Assembly: GCA_039090665.1 (NCBI GenBank)
Contig: JAWCSL010000001.1
Location: forward strand, 46,524-110,523
Direction of reading: 5' to 3'
Source of the DNA: Candidatus Aenigmatarchaeota archaeon
GTDB taxonomy: Archaea; Aenigmatarchaeota; Aenigmatarchaeia; CG10238-14; SCSR01
Length of the DNA: 64,000 nt
The translations under genes and the position numbers were made by a program. This document shows, in pieces, positions 164 through 41,526 of this stretch. Position 1 is the first letter of the stretch. Each line of letters begins with the position of its first letter. The notes below the pieces were generated by a model. The model saw only the letters and a program-made list of their open reading frames with translations, was not told where the DNA came from and ran no database searches.

Positions 164-252
164 ATGGTAGAGTCTAGTAAATGATTGGACCGTTCCAGAA
201 TGATCTTAATGATTTCTGAGGTAGCTGATGAGAATAGGCTCTACCACCCGCA
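164..252 (+). ncRNA. BHB rRNA intron 2 (89 nt) in the helix-84 loop; contains a C/D-box-like guide RNA
   Basis: Helix CGGG(158-161)/CCCG(247-250), bulges TCA and CAA, stem TGGTAGAG/CTCTACCA; excision restores CGGGTC|AGAAATCCG. Confidence 0.9.
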
Positions 253-396
253 AGAAATCCGGAGTAGAGTGTAAGCGCAAAAGCTGGCCTGACTGGATTC
301 CGCAAAGCGAGGAATCCAGCCGCGAAAGCGTGGGCTAGCGATACTTCGGTTCCTCTTAATGGGGGCCGGAGGTATCAGAAAAGCTACCTCGGGGAT

Positions 397-39427: not shown

Positions 39428-41526
39428 ATTATTTCACTCCCTACTTCTCTAAAACCATAAAAACTATTGTAAATTTTGTCTTTTAAATCTACTATTGGAA
39501 GAGCTTTTCTTTCTTCGTCTCTTAAGTATTTGCGAACCCACCATATTGGAACCGGAACACTAACTTCTTTAAATTCTGCTAATAATTTTCTTCTTTCATT
39601 AAAATTTTTATTTTTGAAGTCCTGACATAGAAGCTCTTCTATACATTTTTTAACTTCTTCGTCCTCTACACATTCAGGAGAAGGTATGATTAAAGTAGTG
39701 AAGCTATCCCTGTAACTTAATATTTTCGCCAATTCTTCTTCTGAAATATCAAGCGAAAAGAAAAATTGAAGGAGTTCTTCAAATTGCTCCAAATTAACTT
39801 TTTTAGTCTCTCTTTGCAAAATTTCCAATAATTTATCATAAGTATATATTTCATCAAGATTTTTTAAAAGGTCAAACTCACTTTTTAAGTTATTACTTAA
39901 TTCTTCAACTATTTTCTTAGCAATACATAATTCATCAGATGTATATGGATAGTATCGCTCATTCTCAATTTTTGGCTTAAAAATTTTCACATTTACTTCT
40001 TCTGTTTTCACACCTCTTCTATTTACCCTTCCAAATCGTTGAATTAAAGAGGGAAGAGGGGCTAATTCTGTAAACATAAAATCATAAGAAACATCTAATG
40101 AGACTTCGCATACTTGAGTTGTTATAAGTATGTGGGGTTTTTCTTTTAATTTTTCTATCTCATCCTCTTTTCTTTTTCTATCTTTATACATAAACCTTGC
40201 ATGCAAAAGTAAAACATTTTCTTTTCCCACTTCTTTCACCAATTTTTCTGCAATTTCAATGGATTTTTCAACTGTATTTACAACAACGATTACTTTCTTA
40301 CCATCTTTAAAATTCTTAACTATATCATCAATATGGAGATCTAAGTCTTCGTCCAAATACTCGAACAATGCTCTCCTTTTTGCTTTATATCCATAGGAGA
40401 AATCTAGAAAAGAATTCTGAGTTAAATTTAGCTCACTTGCTAAGTATTTTTCTAAACCTTTCGAAAGAGTTGCAGACATAAATAGAACTTTGAAACTGTA
40501 TATATTTTGAAATTTCTTAAGAAAGTACGTTAGAAGACTTAACATTAGTGGATTTAATAAATGTACTTCATCTAACACTATACCTGAATTTCTAAACATT
40601 ACACGCTTTGTATAATATTTTCCAACCTGTAAAAATGATAGGAGAAATTGATCTACGGTAGTTATTACAAAGGGTTTTATGAAATTTTCTATGAAAAACA
40701 TGTTTTGTAAAAGATCTAAATCTTCTTTTACTTCAGTATCATAGAAATAGAAGTATTTTATCACATTCCTCCCAAAAACGTTTTGAAGTTTTTGATAGAA
40801 TTTATTTATGGCTGTAATAGTCGGAAATAAGTAAAATATTTTGCTAACATCTTTATTTTTGAAAAACAAGAGAGAAACGTCAGTTTTACCCCAGCCTGTA
40901 TAAGCTCTTAATACACCAGGACTCTGAAGATTACATAGTTGCTGTTGTTCCAACCATCTATCAATATCTAATTGAAAATTAGATTTATTATTTTTTAGAA
41001 TATTTTTAACATCTTCGTCACATACAGCTGGTTTTTTTAGTTCTATACTTTTATTCTCTGCTGAGCACACATCCGCAATCTTGAATAGGCCAAAAGCATC
41101 GATGAGATTCGTTATATAATTAAAATCTAAGGTTTTAATTATTTCCTTAACTTCTTCTACTAAATATTGCATCGCAATGCCCTTAATATTTTTAGTAAGA
41201 GGAGAGTGATGCTTATAAATCAAATACCATAAAACGAATGTAATTTTTTTATCTTCAGGCAAGACTTTATACTCCATTAAGTATTTTACGGATAGAGGGG
41301 CATGATCCGGATTTTTTTCATTCCTTATATTCCACATTTTATGTAGTTTACCAAAGTCATGATATTTCACTATATATTCCAAAGCATTCTCTATTTCTTT
41401 TGGGAATGAGTAAAATTTTAGAAAAGTTGAAAAAATGTTTTCTACTTCATTTATATGAACTTGAAGGGGCTTATTCGGATGACTTTCCTTTAATAAATCT
41501 TCCCACTCATCATTTATTTCCTTCAT
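39424..41526 (-). CDS. cas3: Cas3 (N-terminal HD nuclease fused to SF2 helicase)
   Basis: YHDFGK, YKHH, AYTGWGKT, DEVH, MSAT, QRFGRVNR. Confidence 0.95.
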   Translation of the reverse strand: MKEINDEWEDLLKESHPNKPLQVHINEVENIFSTFLKFYSFPKEIENALEYIVKYHDFGKLHKMWNIRNEKNPDHAPLSVKYLMEYKVLPEDKKITFVLWYLIYKHHSPLTKNIKGIAMQYLVEEVKEIIKTLDFNYITNLIDAFGLFKIADVCSAENKSIELKKPAVCDEDVKNILKNNKSNFQLDIDRWLEQQQLCNLQSPGVLRAYTGWGKTDVSLLFFKNKDVSKIFYLFPTITAINKFYQKLQNVFGRNVIKYFYFYDTEVKEDLDLLQNMFFIENFIKPFVITTVDQFLLSFLQVGKYYTKRVMFRNSGIVLDEVHLLNPLMLSLLTYFLKKFQNIYSFKVLFMSATLSKGLEKYLASELNLTQNSFLDFSYGYKAKRRALFEYLDEDLDLHIDDIVKNFKDGKKVIVVVNTVEKSIEIAEKLVKEVGKENVLLLHARFMYKDRKRKEDEIEKLKEKPHILITTQVCEVSLDVSYDFMFTELAPLPSLIQRFGRVNRRGVKTEEVNVKIFKPKIENERYYPYTSDELCIAKKIVEELSNNLKSEFDLLKNLDEIYTYDKLLEILQRETKKVNLEQFEELLQFFFSLDISEEELAKILSYRDSFTTLIIPSPECVEDEEVKKCIEELLCQDFKNKNFNERRKLLAEFKEVSVPVPIWWVRKYLRDEERKALPIVDLKDKIYNSFYGFREVGSEII

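Follow-up and report, generated by a model that had tools for sequence, protein, structure and literature searches.

The stretch of DNA investigated in this study, a window of 64,000 nucleotides from a DPANN archaeon of the Candidatus Aenigmatarchaeota (assembly GCA_039090665.1, contig JAWCSL010000001.1, positions 46,524 to 110,523), begins within the 3' third of a 23S ribosomal RNA (rRNA) gene. This gene contains an insertion, termed intron 2, whose body in our reading of the sequence most probably acts as a working dual-guide box C/D small RNA (sRNA), which would direct the 2'-O-methylation of two nucleotides of its own host, G2251 in the P loop and U2438, both in Escherichia coli (E. coli) numbering. 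A guide function of this intron had been proposed in an earlier inspection of the same DNA, to which we refer as the original prediction, and our analysis supports that proposal in large part: judged at the level of sequence, every finding that it had named beforehand as speaking against such a role turned out otherwise, with boxes that are conserved and covary in relatives, a second target that exists and genes for fibrillarin and Nop5 that are present in the genome. To our knowledge, no use has so far been reported for those archaeal rRNA introns that lack reading frames. If a conserved P-loop guide has intron 2 as its sole carrier, this would explain the retention of the intron, with guide and target being provided in a fixed 1:1 ratio within a genome of 0.6 Mb.

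The identity of the insertion as an intron is defined by comparison with relatives and by its structural features, which, as all features described here, are located on the forward strand. In seven aligned relatives, the site reads ...GGTC-(A/G)GAAAT... without an insert, and this uninterrupted sequence fixes the bounds of the insertion at 164-252 (89 nucleotides). It resides in an apical loop at E. coli 2306/2308, according to a local alignment with the annotated rrlH, where G20-G22 of the window correspond to G2250-G2252, G109 to G2253 and positions 377-398 to 2430-2451, whereas a blastn search with the exon 258-398 found zero matches in E. coli genomes. The insertion is framed by a structure of the bulge-helix-bulge (BHB) type, whose central helix is formed by the exon sequence CGGG (158-161) and the intron sequence CCCG (247-250), and whose two bulges, UCA (162-164) and CAA (251-253), each contain three nucleotides. 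The inner helix between positions 165-175 and 236-246 is evident from the sequence, from the minimum-free-energy (MFE) fold and from a covarying pairing of 8 base pairs in relatives, and the outer helix, as read off the sequence, comprises just two base pairs (157-254 and 156-255). The central helix of four base pairs is paired at all positions in 37 of the 42 homologues at the same site as counted by a script, with four of the five misses (L054, L057, L063 and L066) mis-anchored by the search pattern, and its pair types covary (CGGG/CCCG, GAGG/CCUC, CUGG/CCAG, AGGG/CCCU and GUGG/CCGC), while the bulges retain their length of three nucleotides, the first reading UCA in 31 of the 42. Since the MFE fold of positions 150-265 favours the mature exon helix over the BHB, the assignment rests on covariation and not on energy.

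The tRNA endonuclease cleaves after the second nucleotide of each bulge. The cuts predicted by this rule (163/164 and 252/253) coincide exactly with a joint from position 163 to 253 that is found in RNA contigs. The contigs originate from four metatranscriptome runs and contain joints at 22 to 109, 163 to 253, 396 to 451 and 478 to 550. Contig X20 contains the joint from 163 to 253, contigs X11 and X16 read across 164/254, and one RNA contig of 77 nucleotides matches the exon 109-164 of the window without mismatch and is flanked by both spliced neighbours. The contigs of these runs do not cover any part of 169-240, but since contigs lose rare or short RNAs, this gap is uninformative with respect to the excised intron. 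The genome encodes the splicing endonuclease EndA (E 1.5e-27) and the ligase RtcB (E 4.6e-165), and positions 164-252 thus constitute a canonical BHB intron of the 23S rRNA gene.

Within the inner helix, the intron displays the architecture of a dual-guide C/D RNA, with a variant box C (AUGAUUG, 181-187), a D' guide (188-199), a box D' (AUGA, 200-203), a box C' (AUGAUUU, 209-215), a D guide (216-227) and a box D (AUGA, 228-231). Both guides span exactly 12 nucleotides and the loop between D' and C' contains five. The motif coordinates of the original prediction were all verified, including those of two overlapping candidates for box D, CUGA at 225-228 and AUGA at 228-231. The second of these is favoured by its register and by covariation in relatives, whereas CUGA was rejected because the equivalent positions in relatives show non-box letters and the conserved NUGA is located three nucleotides downstream. 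In the course of a DNA search of 60 relatives, 30 loci were aligned and 25 homologues parsed. The insert is kept at the same site in relatives, where the four boxes and the two stretches of 12 nucleotides are held while stems and loops drift. The parsed homologues share the order C (NUGANNN), 12 nucleotides, D' (NUGA), a variable loop, C' (NUGANNN), 12 nucleotides and D (NUGA), with both spacers measuring 12 nucleotides in 19 of the 25. Box D is found in the same register in all homologues (as AUGA, UUGA, CUGA and others), and the nucleotides UGA of boxes C and C' and GA of boxes D and D' are invariant, which would permit sheared G-A pairs.

In the kink-turns, the pairs at the variable positions change in a compensated manner. 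In the window, the sixth nucleotide of box C and the first of box D (C6:D1) form a U-A pair in place of the usual G-C, and C5 and D2 are both U, which would permit a U-U pair. Among the 25 parsed homologues, C6:D1 is a Watson-Crick pair in 23 (18 UA, 4 AU and 1 GC) and C'6:D'1 in 24 (15 UA, 6 AU, 2 GC and 1 CG), and both pairs hold in 22 of 23 sequences of an independent MAFFT alignment. An extension to 74 distinct homologues, in an alignment fitted to the model, found standard pairs in 69 (C6:D1) and 72 (C'6:D'1), comprising at least four types including UA, AU, GC and CG. In this set, the kink-turn covariation score of 0.85 was reached by none of 500 shuffles and dropped to 0.10-0.18 in slid registers. 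The terminal stem of most relatives consists of 3-6 base pairs directly beside the boxes, with pairing in 82% of the cells of a helix of 5 base pairs. The arrangement is also rare: a strict pattern requiring box, 12 nucleotides, box, 3-9 nucleotides, box, 12 nucleotides and box, with both C6:D1 pairs being Watson-Crick, matches only twice in the 620-kb genome, both times in 23S introns (intron 2 and intron 1), compared with 1, 0, 0, 0 and 0 matches in five block-shuffled genomes. The architecture of intron 2 is thus beyond chance and, as judged from its sequence, its RNA belongs to the box C/D class by structure and not by box consensus. A compensated U-A or A-U kink-turn pair of this kind would broaden the sequence definition used by box C/D gene finders in DPANN archaea.

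Both guides find their best matches in the same 23S rRNA. Positions 216-226 of the D guide pair with 382-392 (E. coli 2435-2445) in a duplex of 11 base pairs including one G-U pair, which places A223, the fifth guide nucleotide upstream of box D (N+5), opposite U385, the equivalent of U2438 and predicted site of 2'-O-methylation. The original prediction had described a longer duplex of 15 base pairs with three G-U pairs between 212-226 and 382-396. By hand this pairing holds, and its Watson-Crick core of nine nucleotides was confirmed, but the usable part shrinks to the 11 base pairs because 212-215 belong to box C'. Similarly, as box D is located at 228-231, the predicted position is U385, which had been proposed as one of two sites, and not the alternative C388. 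The D' guide pairs via positions 189-198 with the P loop in a duplex of 10 base pairs including two G-U pairs, where C195 at N+5 faces G21, the equivalent of G2251 and second predicted methylation site. The target of this guide is split, with its 5' half at 18-22 (C18-G22, E. coli 2248-2252) and its 3' half at 109-113 (G109-U113, E. coli 2253-2257), and both abut only once intron 1 (23-108) is gone. A second target had thus been correctly anticipated, although not its location, which is not outside the window but in a P loop that is formed within it after removal of intron 1. The spliced P loop is the sole match of the D' guide with at least 8 base pairs in 16S and 23S rRNA; for neither guide was such a match found in 16S rRNA, and the exact complement of the D' guide (TCTGGAACGGTC) is absent from the whole genome.

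In relatives, the guides change with their targets. Covariation was investigated in those of the 77 classified homologues for which the 23S rRNA of the same genome was available, which amounts to 49 for the P loop and 43 for the second site. Runs of at least nine base pairs through N+5 are found for the D' guide in 34 of 49 and for the D guide in 34 of 43 homologues, and N+5 is occupied by a Watson-Crick pair in 43 of 43 cases for the D guide and in 43 of 49 for the D' guide. Where C2254 of the P loop is replaced by U (four genomes), the guide carries A in all four; where U2257 is replaced by C (eight genomes), it carries G in four; and where the U at window position 389 is replaced by C (eight genomes), the D guide carries G in all eight, with a G-U intermediate in three genomes. 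Both guides therefore covary with their targets, a property for which the original prediction had suggested a search in related genomes. The two sites have also been encountered in other archaea. Dennis et al. (2015; PMC4644070) have predicted guides for G2520, which equals E. coli G2251, in three archaea, and describe this site as modified in several organisms. Their supplement lists sR14 of Nanoarchaeum equitans with the target U2712 in 23S rRNA and a D guide containing a GGAGUAGCU core, and the same core is shared by the D guide of intron 2. By our own block arithmetic (block from E. coli 2427 to consensus 2800), U2712 is equated with U2438. In five relatives (L012, L014, L021, L034 and L035), we observed an intron within the D-guide target, directly after ...AAAAGCUAC, and since it interrupts the target, the latter is complete only after splicing.

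From the observed anatomy, its conservation and covariation, the encoded proteins and the spliced RNA contigs, we infer that intron 2 is excised in this organism, circularised, assembled into a particle and used for methylation. In such a mechanism, EndA would cut the rRNA precursor at both bulges of three nucleotides and RtcB would join the exons, liberating the intron of 89 nucleotides, probably as a circle closed by the inner helix of 10-11 base pairs. L7Ae would then bind to the two kink-turns formed by C/D and C'/D', both with a U-A pair in place of the usual G-C, and Nop5 and fibrillarin would complete the particle. Pairing of the D' guide with the P loop would place G2251, and pairing of the D guide with the 3' strand adjoining the peptidyl-transferase ring would place U2438, at the N+5 position, and both nucleotides would gain a 2'-O-methyl group. 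Since the P-loop target exists only in the absence of intron 1, its methylation would have to follow the splicing of the latter. The required proteins are encoded in the genome, which, besides fibrillarin (E 2.9e-87) and Nop5 (E 2.2e-64), whose presence the original prediction had made a point of inquiry, also holds a gene for L7Ae (E 1.5e-17). The match to L7Ae (G000:C11:28733-29011) contains one in-frame TGA within the matched stretch.

Several observations weigh against this mechanism. Neither the excised RNA nor the methylation has been observed, and the spliced RNA contigs may derive from close relatives that lack the intron. Complementarity alone is weak and not significant in a single genome, as shuffled guides reach an equal run through N+5 in 16S and 23S rRNA in 121 of 2000 (D) and 285 of 2000 (D') cases. 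The box consensus RUGAUGA/CUGA is violated, with the deviation limited to C6-C7 and D1, and searches of Rfam at the gathering threshold and at E <= 10 returned no usable match, the best scoring 16.5 and 11.6 bits (E = 1 and 3.8). The helix beside the terminal kink-turn is interrupted both in the window and in its closest relative, with the stem of 10-11 base pairs set 5-7 nucleotides apart from the boxes, in the window by an internal loop. Among homologues, A stands opposite C2254 in five guides, N+8 is mismatched in seven D guides, and one genus (L027, L085, L092, L095, L096, L100 and L104) has a different D' guide without match to the P loop. The D' guide of this genus is AACCTTTGATT-like, and its D guide is retained.

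Among other interpretations, the most probable, although we regard it as unlikely, assigns the particle mainly a role as rRNA folding chaperone, whose base pairing to the P loop and to the strand 2435-2445 would keep two parts of domain V in position during assembly, with methylation being absent or secondary. Its targets belong to one domain, at a distance of about 190 nucleotides, and each of them adjoins intron sites, the guide is produced in cis and in equal number to its target, the off-consensus boxes would permit an altered recruitment of the enzyme, and the conservation and covariation of the guides demonstrate pairing and not catalysis. However, the strict spacers of 12 nucleotides and the Watson-Crick pairs at N+5 (43/43 for D, 43/49 for D') reflect needs of methylation geometry, G2251 is a predicted guide target also in other archaea (PMC4644070), fibrillarin is present and intact, and no other candidate enzyme for the formation of Gm2251, including any methylase of the SpoU/RlmB type, was found in the 90.6%-complete genome. 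Considerably less probable is a guide that would work only in cis, on its own precursor prior to excision, with the liberated intron simply being degraded. This proposal draws on the location of both targets in the same transcript, 60 nucleotides upstream and 130 nucleotides downstream of the intron, and on the guide in the tRNA-Trp intron, for which cis action was the initial proposal before later work showed it to act either in trans or intramolecularly (PMC7994747), but it conflicts with free-standing orthologues that must work in trans, with a P-loop target that requires prior splicing of intron 1 and with a BHB that engages exon positions 158-161, so that the fold before splicing competes with the mature helix. 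Finally, it is highly improbable that we are dealing with a common BHB intron of selfish or neutral nature, or with an expansion segment that stays unspliced, whose C/D-like motifs and complementarity arose by chance in AT-rich DNA, since this view, which can point to single-genome shuffles equalling the complementarity in 6-14% of trials, to the abundance of ATGA-type words at 34% G+C and to the missing Rfam match, is at odds with free-standing homologues that carry the same two guides and promoter-like boxes, present within the order in 33 genomes and outside of it in 21 of 21 copies examined, with a conservation that is confined to boxes, spacers and guides while stems and loops drift, with the covariation of kink-turn and guide-target pairs, with a strict pattern found just twice in the genome and with RNA contigs that join across the insertion.

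A search with a covariance model identified the guide RNA in 78 of the 117 genomes of the order (80 matches), nearly always as single copy. Of these matches, 77 were classified, with those in G064, G087 and G099 left out, and they comprise 42 copies in the site of intron 2, one in another 23S intron and 34 free-standing copies in 33 genomes. In the source genome, intron 2 contains the only copy of the guide. Genomes of the order with an intronic copy have no second copy elsewhere and no genome was seen with both forms, and six of the seven aligned 23S loci without insertion belong to genomes with a free-standing copy. A sole guide copy in the genome, and a copy that is either intronic or free-standing in relatives, fit the claim of the original prediction that the intron would be useful rather than selfish. 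Free-standing copies within the order have terminal stems and, as judged by eye, TATA-like boxes about 25-30 nucleotides upstream. In a larger sample of the phylum, the guide RNA was found in 87 of 151 genomes, with 46 matches outside of the order, and all 21 of these that were examined are free-standing, again with TATA-like boxes upstream by eye. One match of the DNA search in relatives (G055:C21, L039) was dropped as apparently spurious.

Since all examined copies outside of the order are free-standing, this state is likely the older one and the intronic state would have arisen within the order, with the number and direction of switches between both being drawn from tallies of families and genera only. 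A guide gene that alternates between a stand-alone and an intronic state offers a dated natural experiment, where a single order holds 34 stand-alone against 43 intronic copies, and where 21 of 21 copies examined outside of it are stand-alone. In a more far-reaching and clearly more speculative scenario, which we consider possible yet doubtful, an ancestral free-standing guide gene would have moved into its own target rRNA, where it became an indispensable intron, and rRNA introns would constitute a general vehicle of guide RNAs. Such generality would be in line with at least two 23S introns that carry a guide, probably also with an insertion in 16S rRNA and with further candidates in the spacer. 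If true, it would imply an ordered assembly, where methylation of the P loop would report the completion of splicing. In one relative (G082), the orthologous guide (L082:440-535) resides in another BHB-like insertion of the 23S rRNA gene, about 20 nucleotides upstream of the P loop, whereas the usual site is empty and reads CCCGGTCAGAAATCGGG, which hints that the unit of intron and guide can change its place or transpose.

The closest known counterpart of intron 2 is the intron of euryarchaeal pre-tRNA-Trp (in Haloferax volcanii and as Pyrococcus sR50), where a complete dual-guide C/D RNA likewise makes up the body of a BHB intron, with both guides directed at the exons of their own host (PMC7994747). 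In contrast to this system, the host of intron 2 is 23S rRNA, with G2251 of the P loop and U2438 as targets, one target spans the splice junction of another intron, the off-consensus boxes contain compensated kink-turn pairs and many relatives carry this guide as a gene of its own. The contexts of sRNA genes treated in the corresponding section of the same review include tRNA introns and tRNA-adjacent, intergenic and gene-overlapping locations but not rRNA introns, and the tRNA-Trp intron is the only archaeal intron named there as guide carrier (PMC7994747). With free-standing archaeal dual-guide C/D sRNAs, intron 2 shares the architecture, the guides of 12 nucleotides and the N+5 rule, and with N. 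equitans sR14 (PMC4644070) the core of the D guide and, by our arithmetic, the predicted site U2712. The guides directed to G2251 in Methanopyrus, Thermoproteus and Pyrobaculum mark this nucleotide as a recurrent predicted target, as it is here (PMC4644070). Unlike intron 2, the sRNAs of Dennis et al. are independent genes without the AUGAUUR/AUGA deviation, and among the listed predictions none combines both targets, as the second guide of sR14 has no prediction and the guides for G2520 have other partners (PMC4644070).

In its conserved site, its presumed cleavage by EndA and its patchy distribution, intron 2 resembles small BHB introns without open reading frames in the rRNA of Thermoproteales and others, but whereas those are treated as mobile or neutral (PMC4496867, PMC6125680), here a conserved guide has no carrier other than the intron. 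The text of both papers does not contain the terms 'sRNA' or 'methylation', and 'guide' appears once, in the title of a reference (PMC6125680). As with intron-encoded C/D small nucleolar RNAs (snoRNAs) of eukaryotes, the guide would be released from the intron of a host linked to ribosome production, so that the synthesis of guide and ribosome would be coupled. However, the hosts of eukaryotic snoRNAs are coding or non-coding genes transcribed by RNA polymerase II, with spliceosomal introns and exonucleolytic trimming (PMC7994747), whereas the host of intron 2 is the target rRNA itself and its release would proceed via a tRNA-type endonuclease. In a full-text search of the literature, with subscription-only papers outside of its coverage, no description of an rRNA intron that contains a box C/D RNA was found.

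The 23S rRNA gene as a whole extends over G000:C1:44179-47522, and its 3' part at positions 1-999 of the window matches Rfam RF02540 (LSU_rRNA_archaea) with 510.8 bits over model positions 2323-2987, interrupted by several insertions. The covariance alignment to this model contains inserts of 88, 93 and 130 nucleotides, the second of which, placed after position 164, is intron 2. The genome consists of 620,606 bases in 15 contigs with a G+C content of about 34%, and the same DNA turns up repeatedly in hot-spring metagenomes. Intron 1 (23-108), which splits the P loop between G2252 and G2253, also shows the strict C/D layout, with ATGAGGA as box C, CCGA as box D and two spacers of 12 nucleotides. 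Its BHB, as assigned by hand, is canonical, with a helix between 17-20 and 103-106 and bulges at 21-23 and 107-109, its guides match 16S rRNA by 11 and 9 Watson-Crick base pairs and RNA contigs join position 22 to 109. A third insertion of 54 nucleotides (397-450 or 399-452) directly follows A2451 in the peptidyl-transferase ring. It contains a stem (ACTAGCTAG/CTAGCTAGT), although a full C/D architecture is missing, and the RNA contigs of all four runs leave it out (joint 396 to 451, with an ambiguity of 2). A fourth, of 71 nucleotides (479-549), resides in the helix after the ring (region of E. coli 2455-2496) and is left out by the RNA contigs of three runs (joint 478 to 550). Near the 3' end of the 23S rRNA, an insertion of 34 nucleotides relative to the archaeal model (860-893) has the appearance of a hairpin expansion.

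Further C/D-like candidates are located upstream of the window. A relaxed scan detected two in the spacer between 16S and 23S rRNA (G000:C1:43977-44150), and the D guide of one of them (C1:44086) would pair with positions 4-16 of the window, just 5' of the P loop, over 12 base pairs, 10 of which are Watson-Crick. In 16S rRNA, helix 44 (L006:3039-3168; G000:C1:~40407-40536) is expanded to 130 nucleotides compared to 36 in the model, and it harbours a C/D-like candidate (C1:40478) whose D' guide would pair with the neighbouring decoding-centre strand CGUCAAGCCAAUC over 11 Watson-Crick base pairs.

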